From a virus (lineage: Duplodnaviria; Heunggongvirae; Uroviricota; Caudoviricetes), in the IMG/VR virus record IMGVR_UViG_2671180547_000005: a stretch of DNA of 39,501 bases. One strand, written 5' to 3'. Of this stretch, positions 1-39,173 are shown piece by piece. The translations under genes were made by a program, and so were the position numbers. The number at the start of each line of letters is the position of its first letter. Position 1 is the first letter of the stretch. The notes below the pieces were generated by a model. That model was not told the DNA's origin. It worked only from the letters and a program-made list of their open reading frames with translations, and made no database searches.

Positions 1-70
1 TCGGTTTACGGGAAACGGTAAACAGGGCGGCGAATGCTCTGCCATCGGACGGCACCGCCGTTGCCGCGAA
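1..70. repeat. Left inverted-repeat copy of the invertible tail-fibre segment; positions 1-14 are the inner half of a gix-like site
   Basis: Positions 1..70 match the reverse complement of 1250..1319 with one mismatch (position 38). Window starts at the core dinucleotide, so the outer half-site is off-window. Confidence 0.75.
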
Positions 71-362
71 TAGACTCGCCACCCCAAGAAATATTAATGG
101 GGTTCCCTTTGACGGGACGCAGGACATAAACATCACTTCTGGTATAACACAGCAGGATGCGGATTCCCGATATATCCAGGATATCAGGCTGGGAGCAGAG
201 AACAGGCAGGTAATGTACGGTGGGGCATATTACTCTGCGTACGGTAATGTTATGGCAGGCCTGCAGATTGACAGTAAAGTTGATGCTTCAAACGATTTTA
301 TAGCATTCAGACCCCTGCAAAAATTAGTCGGAGGTACATGGATTACGGTATCTCAGTTATAA
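3..362 (+). CDS. Tail fibre protein, variable C-terminal segment (5' partial; constant part off-window)
   Basis: Open frame from position 3 to TAA at 360..362; the first ~23 aa (GLRETVNRAANALPSDGTAVAAN) are shared with the inverted alternative segment, then diverge. Confidence 0.7.
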   Translation, partial: GLRETVNRAANALPSDGTAVAANRLATPRNINGVPFDGTQDINITSGITQQDADSRYIQDIRLGAENRQVMYGGAYYSAYGNVMAGLQIDSKVDASNDFIAFRPLQKLVGGTWITVSQL

Positions 363-413
363 ATAGTCAGTAAATAATATATTTTAAAACAGATTTATTT
401 CCAGGAGGATTTT

Positions 414-935
414 ATGGAACTAAAAAATATAACCCGTTATTATCCTGAAAATATGCCATATGGTAATAATGTTCAGTATTTCCAGAGTGAAGATGGTAAG
501 GATTTCTACGAATCCCTGCCATTATTCACCAAAAAATATAAACTTTGCATAACACCTGACAGCGGCGTTATCTGCTCAATATCACAGGACGCCTCGGCGC
601 TGTATCCTGCGGGGTTTTCTGTGGTTGAGGTCGATGAACTCCCTGAAGGCACGGATATTTCAGGAAACTGGAAGTTTGATAATGGCATAATCTCCCGTAT
701 TCCGGTTAACTACGCAAGAAAACTGGAAGCAATGCGCCAGTCATATCTTAATCAGGCATATGAAAAAATTAATGACTGGAGAACGGAGCTACAACTGGGC
801 ACCATCAGCGATGAAGACAGAGCAGCACTTACCCAATGGATGGCATACATCAGTCAGGTGAAGAAAATGGAACTACCCGCCATTAAAACAGAAGCTGAAT
901 TTAACGCCATTAAATGGCCTGAGCAGCCACAGTAA
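414..935 (+). CDS. Tail fibre assembly chaperone (Tfa / Mu U-like)
   Basis: 173 aa directly downstream of the fibre segment; C-terminus has the W-x-x-Y ... I-x-WP pattern typical of Tfa proteins. Confidence 0.7.
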   Translation: MELKNITRYYPENMPYGNNVQYFQSEDGKDFYESLPLFTKKYKLCITPDSGVICSISQDASALYPAGFSVVEVDELPEGTDISGNWKFDNGIISRIPVNYARKLEAMRQSYLNQAYEKINDWRTELQLGTISDEDRAALTQWMAYISQVKKMELPAIKTEAEFNAIKWPEQPQ

Positions 936-940
936 TAAAG

Positions 941-960
941 AAGGCCGGAAGGCCTTCTGA
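941..960. terminator. Hairpin between convergent tfa and alternative fibre segment
   Basis: Perfect 8-bp stem AGAAGGCC / GGCCTTCT with a 4-nt loop, AU-rich flanks, between two convergent stop codons. Confidence 0.4.
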
Positions 961-966
961 ATATCA

Positions 967-1319
967 TTATATACTTGCAGCCGTCACCCATGCTCCATTT
1001 AACAGATACTGCAACGGCCGGTAATACACGCCGCCGACGTTATCTGCCGTATTCTTACCGACATCCTGTACTTTAATTCCGGTAAGAACATTGCCGCCCC
1101 CCAGATTCAGATCCCAGCTTTCCCATGTTCCGGGCATATGTGCGGTCACCGACCCCAGTCTTATGGCGGTTACTGTTCCTGATGAGATAGTGATATCCTG
1201 CGTCCCGTCAAAGGGAACACCATTAATTGTGTGGGCATTTGCCAGCCTGTTCGCGGCAACGGCGGTGCCGTCCGATGGCAGGGCATTCGCCGCCCTGTTT
1301 ACCGTTTCCCGTAAACCGA
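967..1319 (-). CDS. Alternative tail fibre C-terminal segment (silent here; fused to the constant part after inversion)
   Basis: Minus-strand frame is open from the stop at 1351..1353 down to TAA at 967..969; begins with the same ~23 aa as the plus-strand segment and ends with a different ~95 aa tail. Confidence 0.6.
1250..1319. repeat. Right inverted-repeat copy of the invertible segment
   Basis: Reverse complement matches window 1..70 (69/70). Confidence 0.75.
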
Positions 1320-1331
1320 GGTTTTCAGGAA
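1306..1331. promoter_or_regulatory. gix/hix-like 26-bp recombination site (right copy)
   Basis: TTCCCGTAAACC-GA-GGTTTTCAGGAA: near-palindromic 12-2-12 layout, close to the Mu gix sequence as I recall it, immediately upstream of the invertase gene. Confidence 0.65.
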
Positions 1332-1396
1332 AGCCAGGATTAACTCTGTTTTATTCCTCATGCGACAATTCCGGCTTTTTATAATAAGGAAATCGT

Positions 1397-1969
1397 ATGC
1401 TGATTGGGTATATCAGGGTGTCAACAAATGACCAGAATACGGCGCTACAAAGAAATGCGCTGGAATGTGCAGGATGTGAGCTGTTTTTCGAAGACAGAAT
1501 AAGCGGTAAGACAAGGGAGCGTCCCGGACTTAAACGCGCATTAAAGCGACTCCGGCCAGGGGATACCCTGCTGGTCTGGAAACTGGATCGCCTTGGACGC
1601 AGTATGCAGCACCTTGTCCTTTTAACAGAAGAACTCCGGCAACGCGGCGTTAACTTCCGCAGCATTACGGACAATATTGATACATCCACTCCCATGGGAC
1701 GTTTCTTTTTCCATATAATGGGCGCGCTGGCGGAAATGGAGCGGGAACTCATTATTGAACGTACACGCGCGGGTCTTGCTGCTGCCCGTGCTCAGGGGCG
1801 TCATGGCGGCAGACCTCAGAAACTGACAGAGAAAGAGCGGGAGCAAATCGCCCGTTTGCTGGCTAATGGCGAGTCCCGTAAACAAATCGCACTGATATTT
1901 GATATTGGCCTTTCCACCCTTTATCGTTATTTTCCTGCCTCACCAGCTCCGTCACCAAAAGTACCGTGA
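1397..1969 (+). CDS. gin: Serine DNA invertase, Gin/Hin/Cin/Pin family
   Basis: 190 aa; N-terminal MLIGYIRVSTNDQ with catalytic Ser, resolvase core, C-terminal HTH; adjacent to the gix-like site. Symbol given by analogy to Mu. Confidence 0.9.
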   Translation: MLIGYIRVSTNDQNTALQRNALECAGCELFFEDRISGKTRERPGLKRALKRLRPGDTLLVWKLDRLGRSMQHLVLLTEELRQRGVNFRSITDNIDTSTPMGRFFFHIMGALAEMERELIIERTRAGLAAARAQGRHGGRPQKLTEKEREQIARLLANGESRKQIALIFDIGLSTLYRYFPASPAPSPKVP

Positions 1970-2054
1970 CGCTTTTTTGAATTTCCGCAAAACACATATT
2001 TTTCAGCGGTCGCTATTCTGACTCTGTTTAATTCAGAAACAGGCAGAAAAGACG

Positions 2055-4109
2055 ATGTCAGACTCCAAGTGGAAAATGCTCTCCGCCATGCCCGGAGAGT
2101 TTTCAGTCAAGGTTGCCGGTGGCACGGTGGCATTTATTGAAAGCCCTTTCCGCCCTTCGGGTAATAAAGGGGGGATCACCTTCGCAGACTGCGTGATCCG
2201 CTTCAGCACGAAAGAGCCATTATGGGTAATGCCGGTATCCGGTAATCCCAGTGCAGAAATCACCAGTTCAGGCGTGACTGGCATCATTCCAATCACATCT
2301 GACGTGGCCGGAACGCTCACGCCCTCCGACTGGAATGCACCGGATAACGCCGGGCCTTCCGGTAGCACGAATGGCAGCAGTTCAGAGCCGGAATATTACT
2401 TTGTTGTCATTCTCGCGGGTCAGTCAAATGGCATGGCCTACGGCGAGGGGCTGCCGTTACCGGATTCGTTTGACCGCCCGGACCCACGCATTAAGCAACT
2501 GGCACGCCGCAGTACGGTAACGCCCAACGGTACGTCGTGTACATACAACGACATCATTCCGGCAGACCACTGCCTGCATGATGTTCAGGATATGAGCGGG
2601 ATAAACCACCCGAAAGCTGATCTGGCAAAAGGCCAGTACGGGACTGTCGGTCAGGGGTTGCATATTGCCAAAAAACTGCTTCCCTATATCCCACAGAATG
2701 CCGGGATACTTCTGGTGCCCTGTTGTCGTGGCGGGTCAGCATTCACCACTGGAGCCGACGGCTCATTCAGTGAGGCCAGCGGTGCTTCCGCTGATTCTTC
2801 ACGCTGGGGGGCCGGTAAACCTCTGTATCAGGACCTGGTAAGCCGCACCAAAGTCGCGCTGGCGAAAAACCCGAAAAACAAACTTCTGGCTGTGGTCTGG
2901 ATGCAGGGAGAGGCAGACCTTGCCTCAGGAAGCCAGCAGCATAATAGTTTATTCACGGCCATGGTTCAGCAGTTCAGAACTGACCTGGCTCCGCTTGCTG
3001 CGCAGTGCGTGAGTGGAAATGCCACCACGGTGCCGTGGATTTGCGGTGATACCACGTATTACTGGAAAAACGCTGGCACCGATAAATATGAGGCAGTATA
3101 CGGTGGCTACAAAGGCAAGGAAGCACAGAAAATTTTCTTTGTACCGTTCCTGACGGATGAGAATGGACAGAGCACGCCAACGAATGCTCCGGCGGAAGAC
3201 CCGGATATTGTGGCTGTCGGGTATTACGGTGCAGCATCCCGAACCCAGGGCAGTTTTGTTTCGACACAGCGTGACAGCCATTTCAGCTCATGGGCACGCA
3301 GGGGCGTCATTTCAGACCGTCTGGCCTCAGCTATTATGCTCCATGCAGGGCGCACGGCTGAACTGATGCGTGGGCAGACCGTGACACCACCGGATGAGAA
3401 GCCGTCACCTGATACACCATCAAAACCGTCCACGCCACCCGCAGACACCACGACGATGAGTACGCTATTTGCTTACCGGGCATCTGAGTCTGAAGGACGG
3501 TTGACACCACAGGGTTGGGCTGCCGGAGGTGGCAAGGCTCAAATCGTGGATGATGCCGGAGCCAGCGGGGGTAAGGCAATGAAACTGACCAAGGAAACAG
3601 GAAGAGCCCCCTGGTACCTTGAGCATGATGCTGGTAATGGTGCGGACCTGCTGGGTAAAGGTGGTCTTGTCAGTTGTCGTTTTAAACTCGATGGCGCGCT
3701 TACGGCTAATCAGTACGCACTGGCGCTGTACTGGCCGGTTTCTGCCCTGCCGCAAGGGGTTACTCTGGAAGGAAATGCCGGTCATAACCTGCTGGCATCG
3801 TTCTACGTACAGAGCGATGCCACAGACCTTAACGTGATGTATCACAAAGGAAACACGGCGCAGAACACGAAGCTGGGGTCATTCGGCGCATTTAATAACG
3901 AATGGCATACGCTGGGCTTCCGTTTTGCCGGTAACAACAGTATTGAGGTGACGCCGGTCATTGATGGTAAGGACGGGACACCATTCATGCTGTCGCAGTC
4001 TCCGGTCGGCACGTTTACGGCAGACAAGTTGCGCGTGACCGATATCACTAAAAATGCGACTTACCCGGTACTGATTGACAGTATCGTGGTGGAAGTGAAT
4101 AACGCGTAA
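2055..4109 (+). CDS. NanS-p-like sialate O-acetylesterase (SASA/SGNH domain) with Pro/Thr linker and C-terminal lectin-like domain
   Basis: 684 aa; VVILAGQSNGMAYGEG matches the GQSN motif of the sialate O-acetylesterase family; size and modular layout resemble prophage NanS-p proteins. Confidence 0.6.
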   Translation: MSDSKWKMLSAMPGEFSVKVAGGTVAFIESPFRPSGNKGGITFADCVIRFSTKEPLWVMPVSGNPSAEITSSGVTGIIPITSDVAGTLTPSDWNAPDNAGPSGSTNGSSSEPEYYFVVILAGQSNGMAYGEGLPLPDSFDRPDPRIKQLARRSTVTPNGTSCTYNDIIPADHCLHDVQDMSGINHPKADLAKGQYGTVGQGLHIAKKLLPYIPQNAGILLVPCCRGGSAFTTGADGSFSEASGASADSSRWGAGKPLYQDLVSRTKVALAKNPKNKLLAVVWMQGEADLASGSQQHNSLFTAMVQQFRTDLAPLAAQCVSGNATTVPWICGDTTYYWKNAGTDKYEAVYGGYKGKEAQKIFFVPFLTDENGQSTPTNAPAEDPDIVAVGYYGAASRTQGSFVSTQRDSHFSSWARRGVISDRLASAIMLHAGRTAELMRGQTVTPPDEKPSPDTPSKPSTPPADTTTMSTLFAYRASESEGRLTPQGWAAGGGKAQIVDDAGASGGKAMKLTKETGRAPWYLEHDAGNGADLLGKGGLVSCRFKLDGALTANQYALALYWPVSALPQGVTLEGNAGHNLLASFYVQSDATDLNVMYHKGNTAQNTKLGSFGAFNNEWHTLGFRFAGNNSIEVTPVIDGKDGTPFMLSQSPVGTFTADKLRVTDITKNATYPVLIDSIVVEVNNA

Positions 4110-4110
4110 G

Positions 4111-4146
4111 CAGGATAAAAAAATGCCGCCGGTAAGGGAAAACAAG
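4111..4146 (-). terminator. Intrinsic terminator oriented for leftward transcription
   Basis: 10-bp stem TGCCGCCGGT / ACCGGCGGCA; the 7-nt T-run follows the hairpin only on the minus strand. Confidence 0.5.
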
Positions 4147-4253
4147 AAACCGGCGGCAAAAAGATCGTTATATCCAAAGCAAAAAATGCAGTGCACCTTT
4201 TTACCTAACAGATATTACCGGTGTCAACACCATGTCAATAATTGGGAGGGATA

Positions 4254-4436
4254 ATGACATTTTTACAGCTTATTTTATTGTATTTCTGCACGGCAGTATG
4301 TGCGTTATATCTGGTGAGTGGTGGTTATAAGGCCATCAGAAATTATGTTCGCCGCAAAATTGAGGACGCAGCAGCTGAAAAACTCAGTAAAACAGCGCAG
4401 GTAACTCCGCTCCCAAAAGACCCGACCCAGCCCTGA
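4254..4436 (+). CDS. Small hydrophobic (probably membrane) protein, unknown function
   Basis: ATG at 4254 preceded by GGGAGGG; 60 aa with a hydrophobic N-terminus followed by a charged tail. Confidence 0.45.
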   Translation: MTFLQLILLYFCTAVCALYLVSGGYKAIRNYVRRKIEDAAAEKLSKTAQVTPLPKDPTQP

Positions 4437-4471
4437 TTGCAGGGCTTTATTCCCGCATAAGGAGGATATAC

Positions 4472-4726
4472 ATGCCAGAAATTAAAGGCACCGTCACTGA
4501 AGACCTGGTAAAACAGGCACTGTATTCCGGTGAAGTAAATAAGTTGCTGAAAGCGCAGGTCCGCAAGGATTTTGAGGCACAAATCGACACTTACGTTGAT
4601 GAAGTGCTGGCAAAACTTATTGGGCCAGCAGTTGCGGCCAGTGATGCTGATAATGAGCCGAAAACCGACGCGCAGCCAGAGCAACCAGACCCGGCTCAGC
4701 CCGGAACTGACAGTACCATGATGTAA
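4472..4726 (+). CDS. Small acidic protein, unknown function
   Basis: Strong RBS AAGGAGG 6 nt upstream; 84 aa with an acidic Pro-rich C-terminus. Confidence 0.45.
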   Translation: MPEIKGTVTEDLVKQALYSGEVNKLLKAQVRKDFEAQIDTYVDEVLAKLIGPAVAASDADNEPKTDAQPEQPDPAQPGTDSTMM

Positions 4727-4783
4727 CAATACAAACCGGTGGTGTCCTCTGCCGGTTTGACACTAATGAAAACATCTTTGCCG

Positions 4784-4812
4784 CTATCCAGCCATATGTA
4801 ATCGCTGGATAG
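4784..4812 (+). terminator. Hairpin after the small two-gene cassette
   Basis: Perfect 9-bp inverted repeat CTATCCAGC / GCTGGATAG with an 11-nt loop, followed by a U-rich tract; a second hairpin lies at about 4732..4758. Confidence 0.4.
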
Positions 4813-4893
4813 TATTTCGTATTCAGAAATATAGCTGCTTATGGAGCAGTCAATCCTGCTTCCCCATCCGGGCAGGCAAATGAACCGGTATCA

Positions 4894-5187
4894 TTAGTCC
4901 GATTCACGCTTTTGTAGAATCGTTCCCAGAATGCTATACAGCTCATTAGCCTGTTGCTCCATCATTGAGACGGAGGCTATACGGTGCAAAGTGATTTCAG
5001 GAGGTGGCACACCTCCATCTTCTTGCTGTGGAGGAAAAACATAAGATTTAATAAAAAAGTTGAAGCATATGAACTCTCCCGCACTCGAACTGTATTTGCA
5101 GGCATCTGAATAATCGGAAAAATAATCATTATAGATTTCCGCATTTTCAATCATTTTTCGATTTCTCGTCGTTACATGATTGTCCAT
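4894..5187 (-). CDS. Hypothetical protein in an AT-rich segment (moron candidate)
   Basis: 97 aa; ATG preceded by AAGAGG; region is visibly AT-rich compared with the rest of the phage. Confidence 0.4.
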   Translation of the reverse strand: MDNHVTTRNRKMIENAEIYNDYFSDYSDACKYSSSAGEFICFNFFIKSYVFPPQQEDGGVPPPEITLHRIASVSMMEQQANELYSILGTILQKRESD

Positions 5188-5376
5188 AGCAGCCTCTTAC
5201 GCTGGCAATTAACCAATTGACTTCTATAAATTAGTTGATTTGTTTGCTTTGCGGTATTCAAATGTACAATCATTCAGCACTTATGCGTTACAGCACCGTT
5301 TAAAATTAGTGATCAAACTCATAAATTTTCGCTAATGACATTTCGTGTTATTTGTTGTATCAATTAAATAAATCAA

Positions 5377-5400
5377 ATCGATCGTTTTTGTCGATCGATT
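5377..5400. promoter_or_regulatory. GATC pair in a palindromic context upstream of com-mom
   Basis: GATC at 5380..5383 and 5393..5396 within TCGATCG ... TCGATCGA, about 45 bp upstream of the com start; Mu mom is controlled through GATC methylation. Confidence 0.4.
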
Positions 5401-5443
5401 GAGTGATAAAGATATCAACAACAAAGCAGGAGGTTATGCGGCC

Positions 5444-5644
5444 ATGTATCGAAACATACGGTGCCGACATTGTAACAAGCTACTGGCACGAGCCAGCTTC
5501 AGTTATCTGGAAGTTAAATGTCCGCGCTGTAAAACCCTCAATCAAATCACATCTCAGAGCGCCACAGAGCACCCCACATACACAAGGAAATCCTGTCGTG
5601 GGGAACAGAAAGCAAGTTACATCCCGTATCATCAGCACGCCTGA
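5444..5644 (+). CDS. com: Com-like zinc-finger translational activator of mom
   Basis: 66 aa from the internal ATG with an upstream AGGAGG; CxxC ... CPRC zinc-finger pattern as in Mu Com. Confidence 0.7.
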
Positions 5645-6335
5645 ACTTATTCACTATAACGACAATATCGTCGGTTATGGCTCCCGTGAGTTACGGGTTG
5701 AGACAATAAGTTGCTGGCTGGCCCGGCTGGTCGTCGTCAATAAACATTACAGCCATCGTTTCGTAAATAATTCCTACCTTCATCTGGGCATATTTTCAGA
5801 ACGGGAGCTGGTTGGCGTAATGCAATGGGGTTATGCCCTTAATCCAAACAATGGTGCACGCGTCGTAACTGGCACGCAGAACCGCGAATATATGGAGCTT
5901 AACCGGTTATGGCTGCATGACTGTATGCCGAGAAACTCCGAATCAAGGGCAATCAGTTACGCGCTCAAACTAATCAGACAACTTTATCCGCAGGTGCAGT
6001 GGGTTCAGTCGTTTGCAGATGAGCGTTGTGGCTGTCTTGGTGTCGTGTACCAGGCAAGCAATTTTGATTATGTAGGCAGTCATGAAACAACATTCTATGA
6101 ACTTGATGGCGAGTGGTATCACGAGATTTGCAAGAATGCAATCAAACGAGGAGGACAGCGAGGTGAACATCTGCGGGCTAATATCGACAGAGCCAGTGTT
6201 CATAAATTCCGTCAGTTTCGTTACATCCGGTTTCTGGACAAGAGAGCCAGAAAACGCCTTAACACAAAGCTATTCAAAGTCCAGCCTTACCCAAAACCAC
6301 AAACAGTTAAAACTGGTTTGAAAGAGAGTGAATGA
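5598..6335 (+). CDS. mom: Mom-like DNA modification protein
   Basis: Overlaps the 3' end of com in another frame; GTG at 5598 preceded by AAGGAAA; about 245 aa; last gene before the phage end, as in Mu. Start codon inferred. Confidence 0.55.
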
Positions 6336-6379
6336 ACGCTTAAAAACTCATTCTAAAACTCAAAAGAAAAGCGCCGATT

Positions 6380-6463
6380 TAGTATCAAATAAGTTGCGTA
6401 TCGGCGTTTTTCAGCGGTATCAAATGAAATGCAAATCGGTATCAAAAAAATCGCCGCGCTATA
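6380..6463. repeat. Phage right-end (attR-like) cluster of three closely spaced transposase-site repeats
   Basis: AGTATCAAATAAG (6381), CGGTATCAAATGA (6416), CGGTATCAAAAAAA (6437); inferred terminus about 6456..6463 (...GCGCTATA). Confidence 0.6.
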
Positions 6464-6465
6464 GA

Positions 6466-6504
6466 CAGCCTAAGCGGCTGCTGACCTCCCTGACCATGCT
6501 GTAA
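6466..6504 (+). pseudogene. Detached 3' end of IS66 tnpB (QPKRLLTSLTML-stop)
   Basis: Reads in frame as the continuation of the tnpB that ends at 38853 on the other phage flank (…LLEGIDWR + QPKRLLTSLTML). Confidence 0.5.
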
Positions 6505-6548
6505 ATCTCTTTATCCTGGTTGTCACAGAATAAGCCCGGTAAAATACG

Positions 6549-6853
6549 NNNNNNNNNNNNNNNNNNNNNNNNNNNNNNNNNNNNNNNNNNNNNNNNNNNN
6601 NNNNNNNNNNNNNNNNNNNNNNNNNNNNNNNNNNNNNNNNNNNNNNNNNNNNNNNNNNNNNNNNNNNNNNNNNNNNNNNNNNNNNNNNNNNNNNNNNNNN
6701 NNNNNNNNNNNNNNNNNNNNNNNNNNNNNNNNNNNNNNNNNNNNNNNNNNNNNNNNNNNNNNNNNNNNNNNNNNNNNNNNNNNNNNNNNNNNNNNNNNNN
6801 NNNNNNNNNNNNNNNNNNNNNNNNNNNNNNNNNNNNNNNNNNNNNNNNNNNNN
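6549..6853. other. Assembly gap (305 N)
   Basis: Run of n. Confidence 1.
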
Positions 6854-19501: not shown

Positions 19502-20634
19502 TATTGCATTTCCTCTTTCATTTTCAGGAACTCGGCTTCGGTTTTACCCAACAGACGTGCGGCGGCGATATCTTCAGCCGACAGCACAGCGGTGGCGGTC
19601 TTTTTATCCGGCACGGTTACGGTGTCGGTCTGAAGAGTGGTCAGAGCCGCAACCGGCTGGCGGGCGTCAAGCTGTGCAGAAAGTGCCGCGACGCCAATCT
19701 GTTGTCCGAGTCCTTCCATGTATCCGCGTTCGCTTTTGAAAATGCGTCCTTCGGACTCGGCCTTATCCAGCAACTGCTCCAGCGTGGTGCTGCCGTGTTG
19801 TGCCGACAGCGCGGCATATTCGGTACGCAGGGCGTTATACGTCTCAACGGGCACATATTTCGTCAGATCAATAGTGCCGCCAGTTGGTGTGCCTTTTGCG
19901 GTTTCCAGTTCTGCCGACAGGCTGGCAACCTGCGTTTTCAGGGTGTCGTGCGCATCCGCACGGGTTTTGATCCCGGTAAGGGCAGACAGCGCCGCCGTGC
20001 CCAGTTCCGGTGTAAATTCGTCACCGTCAGCCACGGTCAGACCGAGCGCCGTCAGCAACTGGCGTAATTGCTCATTCATGGGGGATTGCTCCTGAGAAGG
20101 GGAAACGACATAGAGATCATCAGCACTGAGTGCCGCGACAGGGTTCATACCCGTAATACCCGGATCATTCGTCAGGGAAGCCATGCGCAACAGGTAGGGT
20201 TCCCCGGTGTCAGCGAAATAATGCATATATGCAGACAGATAGGCATATTCACGGTCATCAATATGTTTTTGTGCCTGTGGTGTCCATTCAGGTTTAATGA
20301 AAATCCCCTGACCCTCACGCCATTCGATGTTTTCCGGCTTAACCCATCCTGCAGCAATAGCCTTGAATCCGTTTTTCTGCGCATTCACGGAGTGATGGTC
20401 ATAATCAATCAGTAACGGCTGATGCAGGGCGGAAAGCCCGGCTTTCATCCGGTTACAGGCGGATTCGTTAATCAGCCAGCCTTCAGTCGGTTTTTCCGGG
20501 CGACCGTCACGGGCCTTTACCCGACCGGCTGGCAGTAACTGACACCATCCGTCGCCGGATGCAGTCAGCGAAGCTGAAAGCACGGCTAAACCGGAGGGGC
20601 GATTTGCGTCTTTTGGGTGATTTTCTGTCTTCAT
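19501..20634 (-). CDS. Head maturation protease / scaffold (Mu I/Z-like)
   Basis: 377 aa; position and size. Confidence 0.75.
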   Translation of the reverse strand: MKTENHPKDANRPSGLAVLSASLTASGDGWCQLLPAGRVKARDGRPEKPTEGWLINESACNRMKAGLSALHQPLLIDYDHHSVNAQKNGFKAIAAGWVKPENIEWREGQGIFIKPEWTPQAQKHIDDREYAYLSAYMHYFADTGEPYLLRMASLTNDPGITGMNPVAALSADDLYVVSPSQEQSPMNEQLRQLLTALGLTVADGDEFTPELGTAALSALTGIKTRADAHDTLKTQVASLSAELETAKGTPTGGTIDLTKYVPVETYNALRTEYAALSAQHGSTTLEQLLDKAESEGRIFKSERGYMEGLGQQIGVAALSAQLDARQPVAALTTLQTDTVTVPDKKTATAVLSAEDIAAARLLGKTEAEFLKMKEEMQ

Positions 20635-20811
20635 ACCGGCAGCATAAGCCGGGTATTTTTGGGGCTGGTTTTGCGGGACTTCAGAAAGTGCTGACAGGGG
20701 GGGAATGAGAAAGGCGCTTCACGCAGATTTTAAAGCCCGTTAAATACAGGTTAGAAAATCACGACACGCGCCTGAAGGGGGTAAGGTAATACGTTTGCAT
20801 ACCTTAAACCA

Positions 20812-21285: not shown

Positions 21286-21406
21286 ATTGCCTCCGCATAA
21301 AGGATGAATATAAAATAAACAGGCGGTCAGTGTACGCTTAACTGGTAAAGTCGGTGCCTGCCTCCGGGTGGATCATGTATGCGGGTTCGACCCCCGCCAC
21401 TGACCG

Positions 21407-28796: not shown

Positions 28797-28867
28797 TGTT
28801 ACGCTGTCTCATGGTGTTCTCTGAGTCAGCGTAACCGTGAGGAAAAGGGGGCAGGATTTGCGGAATA

Positions 28868-29290
28868 TCAGAAAAGCCGTGGCTGCGTGCGTTCCTGATG
28901 CAGGCGACGCTGGTTGCGGATAACGGAGTAAATCTGCGTCTCTGACATCTGGTAGTGGCGGCGCAGGGTTTCAATTTTTTCGCCCTGGCTCCAGCGGGAA
29001 AAAATTTCATTATTGCGCAGTTCGGTGAAAAGGGATTCACCGACCGGGAGATAATAACCACGCCCGCCCATGTACCCGGCCTGTGCGGCTGCAACCTTAC
29101 GGGCAAGCATTCCCGCCTGAGCAGGTTCAATCCCCTGACGGTGCAGTTCAGCACTGATCACATCAACCAGGTCCCGCAGCGTGCCGGGCCAGTTCTTTTT
29201 CAGCTCATCATCAGGAATATCATCCAGACGGTCAATCAGCGCGTGCAGCTGTTCGCTGTCACCAAACATGCTCATCTGTGTTTCAGCCAT
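28868..29290 (-). CDS. mor: Mor/C-family transcriptional activator
   Basis: 140 aa with a C-terminal HTH; positioned upstream of the lysis and late genes. Confidence 0.65.
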   Translation of the reverse strand: MAETQMSMFGDSEQLHALIDRLDDIPDDELKKNWPGTLRDLVDVISAELHRQGIEPAQAGMLARKVAAAQAGYMGGRGYYLPVGESLFTELRNNEIFSRWSQGEKIETLRRHYQMSETQIYSVIRNQRRLHQERTQPRLF

Positions 29291-35564: not shown

Positions 35565-37652
35565 TCAGGCCAGCGGATCACTTTCTTTTAATTTCGCTTC
35601 GAGCAGTTGCAATCCCCGCTGGAAATTACGCTCGTATTCTTCATCAGGTTCATCGTCAGCGACCGGTTGCTGAACGGTCACCGTATTACCCACAGGGCGG
35701 TATATGTTTTCCAGCCAGGGCTCCTGCGGCTTGTGCTCCAGCACGTTGACAACCTCATCCTCGGCATCACGGATTTTTTCCTCTGCGCGTTTACGCATGC
35801 CTTTAAGGCGCTGCTGCTGTTTGTAGTATTCCGCGCTGACAGGGAAGGCTTCGCGTTTATTGCCGTCCCATACCGCCTCGCAAATCACGCTGCCATCCGG
35901 GCGGCGCACGGTAATTCGTTCGGCATCATGAATGTCATAGCTGATAAGTACCTTACGGCCATGCTCGTCACGCAGCTCGGGCGCGTAGTAAATATTATTC
36001 AGCCAGCGTATTTCACAGCGTCTTACAGGGCGCTCCACCATCGGCCGGAACATATCCCGCAGTTCAACATCGGACAGCCATTCAATTTCCGTGTCCTCTT
36101 CCGCCAGGCGTTTTTTTCTGAACTCCGCCGGGCTGTAATGTTTACCGTTCGGCTTCATGGGTAATTCATCGTGCGGCCGGTTGTTGTACCACTCAACACC
36201 GTCACGAATGGCATCAATCAGTTCAGACCAGGACGGTAAATCACGCATCGCTGACTGCTGCCGGGCGTTCAGCCGTTTGCCCTGTTGCAGGGCACTGAAT
36301 GCCGAGCGTAAATCGCGGTTGGTTTTACGTAACGTCTCGCGATCTGCTCCTTTCCCGAAATAGGTGCGGTATTTACGGGCTATGCGCATCGGTAATGTGC
36401 GGTTAAGCCGTTCGATAATGCCCCGTCCCTGCGGATTACCGGCAATCCCTGTCGGGTGATTAATCCCCAGTCGTGGCAGTATCCCCACAATCTCCTTATC
36501 CAGGACGTCGGCGGTTTCCCCGGAGCCATTATCCGAGTAATACAGAAACGGTTTGCCATGATGGCGAATACCGTGCTGTATGGCACCGGCTACGGCGAAA
36601 ACATTTTCAGCCAGGTCAAGGCTCCAGCCCACCACAAAGCGCGTGCCACCGTCGATAACAAAGGTCACTTCCGGTGCGAATGGCCGCCCGTGAACCGGGT
36701 GCGCGCATTTCAGCTTCATGCCGTGACCGTCACCAATCCAGACATAATTCACCGGCATTCTGGACCAGTCGCGGCGCGTGAATCCCTCAAGCTGACGGTA
36801 TTCACTGCCAGTTACCCGGCCTTTTTGTTTCACCACTTCCGGCAGTTTCTTCATTGCGCGGCGAATGGTGTCATAAGAGGGCATGATATCGAGCATATAA
36901 GGCTCATCAGCGTGCCGGTGCTGCCATTCAGCAACAAAATCCTCGTAAGCCTCGGTCATTGGTCGGCCGTTTGACTGGCGATACTGCGCCAGAAATTCGG
37001 GCAGCCAGTTAATATCTTCGGCTTTTATTTCCTGGCGTTTACCCGGTGCCAGTAAAAGCAGGCGTTCAGCGGCGTTCTGTGCCTTGTTAAAGGCCGCAAT
37101 CCAGCGTTTCAGCGTGATTTCACTCAACGCGCGGCTGTTTCCCTTTTTGGCGTTCGCCGTCTCAACCATTGCCACAATGCGCTCGTCCAGTTGTGATCGT
37201 GCCAGGCTGTTAACGAGGAACCGGATAGCTTTAGCGCAGCTGAAACCGGGTTGTTGCGTGAATTTCAGCACCTCACTGACGATCGCAATGCGTGCGTCTG
37301 CCACCTGGCGCTGGTTTTCAGTCAGGGCATTGAGGCGTTCGACCATCAGTTGTGGTGATCCGCGATATGCCTCCACCGCATCAACCACGGCAGACGAGCG
37401 TCTGGCCTTTGTCACCACCGGAGCCGGTGATTCATCGGCTTTTTGCGTCATCAGTTGCAGGGCATAACGTTCGCGTAATGCCTGCTGTGTCACTTCAGGT
37501 AAACAGTCAATGCTGTATTCAAAACCTTTAGCGCCTTTCTTGCGGCGTCTGCTGGTTTCGCTGGTTGCATACTTCCTGATTGAATAGCGAACGCCTTGCT
37601 CCGTTCCCGGCATCCCCGGTAATCCAACCAGTTCTTTAACTGAAGCAAACAT
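35565..37652 (-). CDS. Mu-type DDE transposase (MuA-like)
   Basis: 695 aa; follows ner and precedes B as in Mu. Confidence 0.85.
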   Translation of the reverse strand: MFASVKELVGLPGMPGTEQGVRYSIRKYATSETSRRRKKGAKGFEYSIDCLPEVTQQALRERYALQLMTQKADESPAPVVTKARRSSAVVDAVEAYRGSPQLMVERLNALTENQRQVADARIAIVSEVLKFTQQPGFSCAKAIRFLVNSLARSQLDERIVAMVETANAKKGNSRALSEITLKRWIAAFNKAQNAAERLLLLAPGKRQEIKAEDINWLPEFLAQYRQSNGRPMTEAYEDFVAEWQHRHADEPYMLDIMPSYDTIRRAMKKLPEVVKQKGRVTGSEYRQLEGFTRRDWSRMPVNYVWIGDGHGMKLKCAHPVHGRPFAPEVTFVIDGGTRFVVGWSLDLAENVFAVAGAIQHGIRHHGKPFLYYSDNGSGETADVLDKEIVGILPRLGINHPTGIAGNPQGRGIIERLNRTLPMRIARKYRTYFGKGADRETLRKTNRDLRSAFSALQQGKRLNARQQSAMRDLPSWSELIDAIRDGVEWYNNRPHDELPMKPNGKHYSPAEFRKKRLAEEDTEIEWLSDVELRDMFRPMVERPVRRCEIRWLNNIYYAPELRDEHGRKVLISYDIHDAERITVRRPDGSVICEAVWDGNKREAFPVSAEYYKQQQRLKGMRKRAEEKIRDAEDEVVNVLEHKPQEPWLENIYRPVGNTVTVQQPVADDEPDEEYERNFQRGLQLLEAKLKESDPLA

Positions 37653-38616: not shown

Positions 38617-38689
38617 TAGCATTAGCCCGCATTTTGCACTATATCGAGTATTTCGCATTGTTTGGAACGCCTTAAAAGACTAAAACCAC

Positions 38690-38862
38690 AGTATCAAATG
38701 AGTTGCCGATTTTATAATAAATGACTAATTATTGCACAATCGGTATCAAATAGACCTTATCCGCACATCTAGCCATCACCTGTTTTATTTCAGTATCTTA
38801 CAGGTGATTTCACCTCCTTTCACTAAACCCCTTGTCGGTATCAAATGATTCACCTGGTTATA
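38690..38862. repeat. Phage left-end (attL-like) cluster of three spaced transposase-site repeats
   Basis: CAGTATCAAATGAG (38690), CGGTATCAAATAG (38742), CGGTATCAAATGATTCA (38835); inferred terminus at 38862. Confidence 0.6.
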
Positions 38863-39173
38863 TGTCGCCAGTCGATACCTTCCAGCAGCATCGCCAGCTG
38901 CGCCTGTGTAAGGAACACTTTGCCATCACGGGCTGACGGCCAGGCGAAGCGCCCACGCTCCAGCCGTTTGGTCAGGAGGCACAGTCCGTCACTGGTGGAC
39001 CACAGCAGTTTAACCTGACTGCCGCTGCGGCCCCGGAAAATGAAAACATGGCCGGACATGGGATCGTCTTTCAGCGCCGTCTGTACTTTCGCAGCCAGGC
39101 CGTTGAAGCCATTTCTCATATCGGTGATACCGGCAACCAGCCAAATTTTGATCCCGGAAGGTAACGGGATCAT
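38853..39173 (-). CDS. tnpB: IS66-family TnpB (orf2), 3' end interrupted at the phage junction
   Basis: 107 aa with the characteristic IWLVAGITDMR ... LLEGIDWR; the stop codon coincides with the first bases of the phage end. Confidence 0.75.

Follow-up and report, generated by a model that had tools for sequence, protein, structure and literature searches.

The window, by which we mean the whole stretch of 39,501 nucleotides analysed here, carries two overlapping genes, com and mom, at one end of a Mu-like prophage, with a set of sequence elements upstream of com, around the start of mom and at the junction between prophage and host. These features, and a third phage gene that bears on their regulation, are as follows.

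5350-5364, no strand assigned: upstream OxyR-like half-site ATTTGTTGTATCAAT, which agrees with 7 of the 10 specified positions of the consensus ATAGnTnnnAnCTAT and is in register with the half-site that holds GATC site I in Mu, a GATC that the window replaces by CAAT
5376-5400, no strand assigned: inverted repeat AATCGATCG-N7-CGATCGATT, whose perfect 9-nt arms (5376-5384 and 5392-5400) enclose both GATC sites; proposed Dam-methylation sensor
5381-5395, no strand assigned: proposed OxyR-type half-site inside the inverted repeat, from consensus scoring
5405-5410, plus strand: GATAAA, a tentative and weak -10 hexamer of the com-mom promoter, at the position of TATACT and TATAGT in two IMG/VR relatives, L054 and L056
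5428-5433, plus strand: AGGAGG, the Shine-Dalgarno sequence of com as read from the letters, conserved in relatives of the window type
5444-5644, plus strand: com, from the ATG at 5444 to a stop codon ending at 5644, encoding a 66-residue zinc-ribbon protein that activates the translation of mom (identical prophages carry it in RefSeq as WP_014334043.1)
5557-5573, plus strand: Com RNA target motif GAGCGCCACAGAGCACC, which contains CC-ACA-GAG, matches the SELEX consensus exactly and lies directly 5′ of the inhibition hairpin
5562-5569, plus strand: CCACAGAG, a stretch inside the Com target motif
5572-5603, plus strand: predicted translation-inhibition hairpin, in which CCCCAC (5572-5577) pairs with GUGGGG (5598-5603) and the GUG start lies in the 3′ arm
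5598-6335, plus strand: mom, with a GTG start, encoding a 245-residue GNAT-fold enzyme (Pfam PF25680) that by homology would carry out Gly-tRNA(Gly)-dependent adenine N6 modification
6380-6463, plus strand: right prophage end (attR), with YRGTATCAAA repeats at 6380, 6415 and 6437, presumably bound by the transposase; end of the phage at 6463
6464-6548, plus strand: host flank, a fragment 100% identical to ISEc8 (IS66 family), followed by 305 N (6549-6853)
28868-29290, minus strand: homolog of the phage activator C (Pfam Mor, 6.7e-31; 40% identical to Mu C), adjoining lys

The preliminary description of this DNA had proposed a Com-like zinc-finger reading frame that overlaps a Mom-like one in another frame, and had offered alignment with Mu Com and Mu Mom and comparison of the 245-residue product with the Mom family as the means of checking it; on these comparisons both assignments stand. 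The mom frame is open from 5403 to 6335, and its product matches Pfam Mom (PF25680) with E=7.8e-78 and 261.2 bits against a cut-off of 27.1, residues 31-233 of 245 covering the profile in full (positions 1-202 of 202). Identity to Mu Mom is 78%. All ten residues tested in Mu Mom are kept. Numbered as in PMC13219725, which counts from an upstream ATG to give a 241-residue Mu Mom, these are R111, S124 and R151, which are essential, D149, H58, Y59, W48, Y159 and W181, which are important, and Y28, whose mutation has little effect (PMC13219725); their counterparts in the window are, in the same order, R103, S116, R143, D141, H50, Y51, W40, Y151, W173 and Y20. The helix-turn-helix-like insertion of Mu Mom (residues ~175-209), which is required for activity (PMC13219725), aligns without gaps and with 28 of 35 positions identical, and the window protein has 12 additional residues at its C-terminus. 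On this similarity, 5598-6335 encodes a genuine Mom and not a methyltransferase. The com-methyltransferase modules of other Mu-like prophages (FluMu Hin1523, Hia5, Pnm1 Nme1821 and B3) carry a methyltransferase where the window carries Mom, and a close relative of the window phage that is inserted in Stx phages (L007) keeps com and an identical hairpin with a C5 cytosine methyltransferase instead. A 2026 paper reports that Mom moves glycine from Gly-tRNA(Gly) onto the N6 position of adenine in double-stranded DNA, and that an on-base rearrangement after the transfer gives N6-carbamoylmethyl-adenine (PMC13219725). By homology, the enzyme encoded at 5598-6335 would form this product, which protects phage DNA against many restriction enzymes.

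The start of mom, which had been placed at GTG 5598 with AAGGAAA upstream, is right as judged from three agreeing observations: the GTG aligns with the GUG start of Mu mom, RefSeq uses the same GTG in an identical prophage copy, and the same CCCAC...GUGGG hairpin surrounds it. The GUG start of Mu mom is located in the stem of the translation-inhibition structure (PMC6483171). The ribosome-binding site AAGGAAA occupies 5584-5590, 7 nt ahead of the GTG. Com and mom share 47 nt (5598-5644), and because the 154-nt offset between their starts (5444 and 5598) is no multiple of 3 they are read in different frames. Mu (NC_000929; com 35768-35956, mom 35877/35907-36602) has the same gene pair in the same order with an out-of-frame overlap, which measures 50 nt from the GUG start. 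The two phages differ in what precedes the pair: com directly follows gin in Mu, whereas in the window ~3.4 kb separates them, holding SASA/DUF6645, DUF1378 and DUF826 genes and one orphan.

For Com, membership was judged by a profile match together with four zinc-binding cysteines (C6, C9, C26 and C29 in Mu). The product of 5444-5644 matches Zn_ribbon_Com (PF10122) with E=7.5e-13, scoring 48.2 bits where the cut-off is 22.9. It shares 43% identity with Mu Com and retains all four zinc cysteines, which are invariant in the alignment, at positions 7, 10, 26 and 29. Its gene lies directly upstream of mom and overlaps the gene under its control. By these features it is a genuine homolog of Mu Com. 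At the DNA level the relationship is less even: BLAST similarity to Mu, D108 and SfMu is ~72% and confined to 5647-6295, com and the sequence upstream of it being too diverged, and no similarity to Mu DNA was found upstream of 5647.

Two GATC sites in a palindromic context, noted at about 45 bp upstream in the preliminary description, were located at 5380-5383 and 5393-5396, 13 nt apart from start to start and 47 nt ahead of the com ATG, within the perfect 9-nt inverted repeat listed above. They are the counterparts of Mu sites II and III, the two proximal sites of that phage, which have the same 13-nt spacing and lie within AATCGATC...GATCGATT. An ungapped block AATCGATCG-N8-GATCGATT is invariant among the window, Mu and D108, and its flanks cannot be aligned. 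Mu has a third, distal GATC that is missing in the window, where only the proximal sites 5380 and 5393 are present and the position of Mu site I reads CAAT. A further GATC occurs at 5311 and is not conserved in O157-type relatives.

As a chance event the pair is unremarkable, since GATC-N9-GATC is expected 0.64 times in 39.5 kb and appeared at least once in 48 of 100 shuffles, with just one occurrence in the window; the argument for it rests on position and conservation. We compared relatives at 21 loci from GTDB genomes and 80 from IMG/VR. Both tetranucleotides are invariant in Mu, D108, the Edwardsiella, Symbiopectobacterium and Apirhabdus relatives and those from IMG/VR, amid bases that vary on either side and in between, so that diverged relatives within the Enterobacterales retain the pair. 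With its 13-nt spacing the pair is present in 10 of 12 gammaproteobacterial com-mom modules, with differing surrounding and intervening bases, and recurs in most of the distinct upstream sequences from IMG/VR. Counted from the com ATG, the GATC sites fall into these layouts:

Mu type: GATC at -109, -91 and -78, spacing 18 and 13 nt
Type in which Com starts MDSVRCKNC: GATC at -98 and -80, spacing 18 nt only
Window type: GATC at -64 and -51, spacing 13 nt only

The window type is common to L054, and L056 and the Edwardsiella prophage have the same arrangement plus an extra site 31 nt further up.

The agreement of the pair with Mu sites II and III makes Dam-dependent control a reasonable inference. 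When the window was scored with the OxyR half-site consensus ATAGnTnnnAnCTAT, a single place, 5350 and 5381, had two half-sites of at least 7/10 at a distance of 31 nt, and the same test on the Mu locus returns 898 and 929 in the same register, a result that is suggestive only because the 31-nt spacing was taken from Mu after seeing it. In the gtr operon of P22, each OxyR half-site holds a GATC pair with 13-nt spacing, and methylation abolishes OxyR binding (PMC2909390). The OxyR/Dam switches of P22 gtr and E. coli agn43 have GATC within OxyR half-sites, as we propose for the window; they differ in that gtr and agn43 are phase-variable host or prophage surface genes, and no phase variation is known for mom. 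Control of com-mom of the Dam/OxyR type is plausible on this sequence analogy. In such a scheme, OxyR or another methylation-sensitive protein would bind the unmethylated GATC pair and repress transcription, and Dam methylation of the sites at 5380 and 5393 would relieve the repression.

A consensus promoter scan of 5150-6548 returned no plus-strand sigma-70 promoter. Visual inspection suggests ATGACA-17-TATCAA (5335-5363) and TTGTCG-19-TATCAA (5388-5418) as candidates, neither of which gained support. The hexamer GATAAA at 5405-5410 is not conserved in the closest relatives of the window phage. L054 and L056, which share the same short layout, have good -10 hexamers, TATACT and TATAGT, 11-13 nt past the second GATC. 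If GATAAA is the real -10, the GATC pair would be at about -38 and -25. The pair is 27 bp closer to com than that of Mu and probably lies within the core promoter of com-mom.

The activator side of Mu control could not be matched in the same interval. Comparison with Mu late-promoter sequences (PMC4461284) gave no occurrence near com of the Mu C-binding motifs TTAT-N6-ATAA and ATAACCCC, and the C-activator site that Mu has between its GATC cluster and -10 (TTATgccccaATAA) has no equivalent in the window, where this interval is 27 nt shorter than in Mu. The window phage does encode the C homolog listed above, and it has a late-promoter motif of its own, TYCCGCAAAWCCWGCCCC with TAYGCT 14 nt further on, which precedes lys and also the gene that begins at 20634. 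The sequence ahead of com does not contain this motif, even when 3 mismatches are tolerated.

These observations give some room to the view that the genes are com and mom but that the GATC pair is no Dam/OxyR switch, being instead a relic of Mu ancestry, a place where methylation acts directly on RNA polymerase or a phage activator, or the site of some other methylation-sensitive reader. We regard this as unlikely, though it deserves to be weighed seriously. A direct effect of methylation on polymerase or activator comes into consideration because the sites are probably inside the core promoter, and with 47 nt between it and the com ATG, where Mu has 74 nt, the pair would overlap the -35 and spacer region and not lie upstream of an activator site. 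One of the three Mu sites is missing, the half-sites score 7/10, and other relatives retain a different pair with 18-nt spacing, which points to a flexible GATC architecture. However, GATC stays invariant while neighbouring bases change across lineages whose Mom is 70-81% identical to that of the window, which argues for selection on the Dam sites themselves, and in the relatives from Desulfovibrio, Endobugula and Parathalassolituus the 170 nt that precede com contain no GATC. A promoter-overlapping position is also no obstacle in a related case, as the promoter-proximal GATC pair of P22 gtr (-46, -33), which shares the 13-nt spacing within an OxyR half-site, overlaps the promoter and the OxyR/Dam switch still works (PMC2909390). 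Control of the Dam/OxyR type stays the account of the pair that we prefer.

Much less probable is a mainly structural role for the palindrome at 5376-5400, as a terminator or insulator hairpin for minus-strand transcription from the prophage end, or as a hairpin in the com mRNA leader, with no protein site. A terminator scan does flag it on the minus strand, where the T-rich tail TGATTTATTT comes after a stem of 9 bp, but chance alone should give 1.6 such matches in this region, G-C pairs make up only 4 of the 9 in the stem, and the palindrome does not coincide with the end of any minus-strand gene. In the plus-strand reading the stem lacks a U-run behind it. Relatives conserve the GATC cores and not the pairing, Mu having 8-nt arms with a 9-nt spacer and L056 having no such palindrome.

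Within the reading of the pair as an OxyR-type switch, one could go further and propose that the window, L054, L056 and the Edwardsiella prophage form a distinct, shorter class of com-mom regulation that has dropped the C site and brought the GATC pair into the core promoter at ~-38/-25. We consider a separate class of this kind doubtful. If it were real, Mom control would work like the promoter-overlapping switches of gtr and agn43, unlike the upstream repressor plus activator of Mu, and it could in principle be heritably ON or OFF in lysogens, or independent of C.

Because Mom is toxic, its expression is gated, and a second level of control may operate on the mRNA. The hairpin predicted at 5572-5603 (-13.1 kcal/mol, z = -1.84) is also predicted in Mu, where the GUG start likewise lies in a CCCAC/GUGGG hairpin with the Com target motif directly 5′ of it. 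In the predicted fold, an inner helix hides part of the mom Shine-Dalgarno AAGGAAA; this helix is extra in comparison with Mu, and the loop is 20 nt in the window against 11 nt in Mu. A stem CC(C)AC...GUGG(G) with an 11-20 nt loop bearing the Shine-Dalgarno also occurs in Mu and in the Edwardsiella, Scandinavium and Apirhabdus prophages, and as the stem is invariant among these relatives it draws no support from covariation.

The binding site expected for Com is found beside this hairpin. SELEX has given the consensus GAGNNCC(N)2-3GAGNNCC, with CC(N)2-3GAG recognised in a hairpin loop beside the inhibition structure (PMC6483171). Across both strands of the 39.5-kb window the motif GAGCGCCACAGAGCACC is the sole match to it, where 0.04 would be expected, and Mu has CCUGCGAG at the same position. 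Here 5561-5562 are predicted to pair with 5569-5570 around a 6-nt loop, CACAGA, forming a small hairpin that adjoins the 5′ side of the inhibitory stem; its stem has 2-3 base pairs, against 4 in Mu. An Rfam search of 5150-6548 returned only a sub-threshold chance match to IS102 (21 bits against 46), and no curated Rfam family covers the Com site or the mom hairpin in this interval.

Taken with the Mu system, these elements support a translational layer in which Com would open the mom hairpin. The hairpin at 5572-5603 would lock the mom GUG and part of its ribosome-binding site; Com, translated first from the shared mRNA, would bind CC-N3-GAG in the small hairpin at 5557-5573 and open the inhibition hairpin. 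That Com instead binds DNA and regulates transcription at the promoter, as the RefSeq label 'Com family DNA-binding transcriptional regulator' could be taken to say, is hardly credible, since the label is a generic family name with no result behind it, experiments on Mu and Haemophilus Com show binding to RNA hairpins with CC(N)2-3GAG and activation of translation (PMC6483171), and the RNA motif with its adjoining hairpin is found at the right place in the window.

Mom had also been described as the last gene before the phage end, as in Mu, and this was borne out when the end was mapped to 6463. In 18 complete E. coli genomes, window positions 4700-6463 are present at 89.5-100% identity and identity stops at 6463-6470, giving way to unrelated genes of the host, the pattern that a transposable phage should leave; in Mu, mom is likewise the last gene before attR. 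The repeat YRGTATCAAA, present three times in attR, also occurs three times at the other prophage end (38617-38862). When the reverse complement of 38863-39000 is joined to 6468-6548, an intact ISEc8 is reconstituted in one piece at 99-99.5% identity, and GACA is duplicated at both junctions between prophage and ISEc8. By these joins the window holds one prophage, inserted in ISEc8.

The orientation of the two parts of this prophage needs comment. A complete genome has com-mom after the tail genes and on one strand with them, whereas the window has the prophage body (6854-38862) on the minus strand and the block 1-6463 on the plus strand, so that com-mom faces the tail genes. A 79-nt inverted repeat (1-79 and 1241-1319), which flanks a tail-fibre-assembly gene beside a Gin-type invertase, lies exactly where the left block begins, and the block ends 85 nt into the multicopy ISEc8, immediately before the 305-N run. 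Because the block is bounded in this way and the flanks rejoin as ISEc8, the flip of 1-6548 with respect to the body is most likely a scaffolding artefact, a contig mis-oriented across the N gap. In the true order, the tail-fibre gene and gix would be followed by 1-6463 reversed and then by ISEc8. We also considered a true inversion that makes com-mom convergent with the tail genes and rejected it, the repeat-bounded block and the rejoining ISEc8 flanks favouring the artefact.

Overall, we put at roughly 85% the probability that a Mu-like transposable prophage of the Sp18 type from E. coli has its com-mom operon and right end at 5350-6463, with two layers of control on the operon that would include the OxyR-type GATC switch we infer. 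As far as can be read from its sequence, this copy is ordinary and intact, encoding an anti-restriction DNA-modification enzyme and its translational activator. Sp18 itself encodes Mom and its regulator at the position equivalent to that in Mu (PMC3299994). In Sp18-type prophages of E. coli O157 and other lineages the module is 95.7-100% identical in DNA, with the regulatory region and phage end alike and with Com and Mom annotated as WP_014334043.1 and WP_000528246.1. The window shows no substantive difference from them; its copy sits in ISEc8 and is split and mis-oriented across the N gap.

The module is therefore already known, as identical genes carry Com and Mom labels in RefSeq E. coli genomes, where the names in use are 'Com family' for the first and 'Mom family adenine methylcarbamoylation protein' or 'tRNA(Gly)-dependent adenine aminoacyltransferase Mom' for the second, and novelty is low. 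The compact regulatory layout with two GATC sites and no Mu-type C site is the sole point that is mildly new. In practical terms, the left 6.5 kb of the record is wrongly oriented with respect to the rest of the prophage. Beyond correct annotation the importance of the locus is small, this being a textbook system whose exact sequence is labelled in RefSeq. For the family of Mu-like prophages, the comparison indicates that the translational switch made up of Com and the hairpin accompanies the Dam-site cluster in diverged members, and that the cluster comes in at least three layouts. A modest comparison of the ways in which expression of this lethal anti-restriction enzyme is held off could take these layouts as its guide.

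The left block of the window lies on the strand opposite to that of its own prophage body (within 6854-39501), from which it is separated by a run of N.

1-6548, left block: invertible segment, gin, cargo genes, com-mom and attR
6549-6853, N run between left block and prophage body

ISEc8 borders the prophage at both ends, and joining the two prophage flanks restores an intact ISEc8 with a duplicated GACA. The window thus holds a single Mu-like prophage inserted in ISEc8, and the opposite strand of the left block most likely reflects a contig placed in the wrong orientation over the N gap.

At the far left of this block, one arm of a long inverted repeat begins precisely at window position 1. 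The repeat encloses a tail-fibre-assembly gene and its segment adjoins an invertase gene.

1-79 and 1241-1319, 79-nt inverted repeat, arms 95% complementary
414-935, tail-fibre-assembly gene
1397-1969, Gin-type serine invertase

The repeat and the enclosed gene, beside a Gin-type invertase, make up a G-segment-like invertible element. Between gin and com (2055-5187) lie four genes that Mu does not have.

2055-4109, SASA-esterase/DUF6645 protein, 684 aa
4254-4436, DUF1378 gene
4472-4726, DUF826 gene
4894-5187, minus strand, orphan ORF

Elsewhere in the prophage, the motif TYCCGCAAAWCCWGCCCC with TAYGCT 14 nt after it is confined to two places, ahead of the lysozyme gene and ahead of the gene that starts at 20634.

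28848-28865, minus strand, TYCCGCAAAWCCWGCCCC motif upstream of the lysozyme gene
20661-20678, minus strand, TYCCGCAAAWCCWGCCCC motif upstream of the gene starting at 20634

Both sites may serve the phage's C homolog as late promoters, and the motif is similar to the CCCGCACCT box in Mu's promoters for lys and I. A tRNA-like element at 21326-21405 (plus strand), intergenic and antisense to late genes, reaches 31.0 bits with Rfam's model for tRNA, where the threshold is 29 (E=9e-5); its acceptor stem is long, its T-arm normal and its anticodon region abnormal, and ARAGORN did not call it.

The GATC region upstream of com is enclosed entirely by a perfect 8-nt inverted repeat, TTTGTTGT / ACAACAAA (5351-5358 and 5418-5425). 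Both arms are kept in the nearest window-type relatives; the repeat may be a chance occurrence.

Homologs of Mom with 62-79% identity to the window protein also occur without com, at six loci (L004, L016, L018, L026, L008 and L011), some of them lambdoid. In pAEv1818 (L004), mom comes after a gene annotated as a Q antiterminator and a hairpin resembling a terminator; L016, L018 and L026 carry this terminator-like sequence, or one similar to it, immediately upstream of mom. A GATC cluster is absent from all four of these loci. L008 and L011, which are Mu-like or beside tail genes, retain a GATC cluster and have no Com ORF.

The reverse arrangement, com with a different downstream gene, is found in a close relative of the window phage, a Mu-like phage sitting in an Stx2c phage (LC727881, region 1610-2816). 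Here com, the Com motif and the GUG hairpin are all retained, the hairpin being identical to that of the window, and mom is replaced from about codon 5 onward by a 350-aa C5 cytosine DNA methyltransferase (PF00145, 2e-42). Because this locus pairs com and the GUG hairpin with a methyltransferase rather than mom, the Com switch acts as a cassette that can be swapped between downstream genes.
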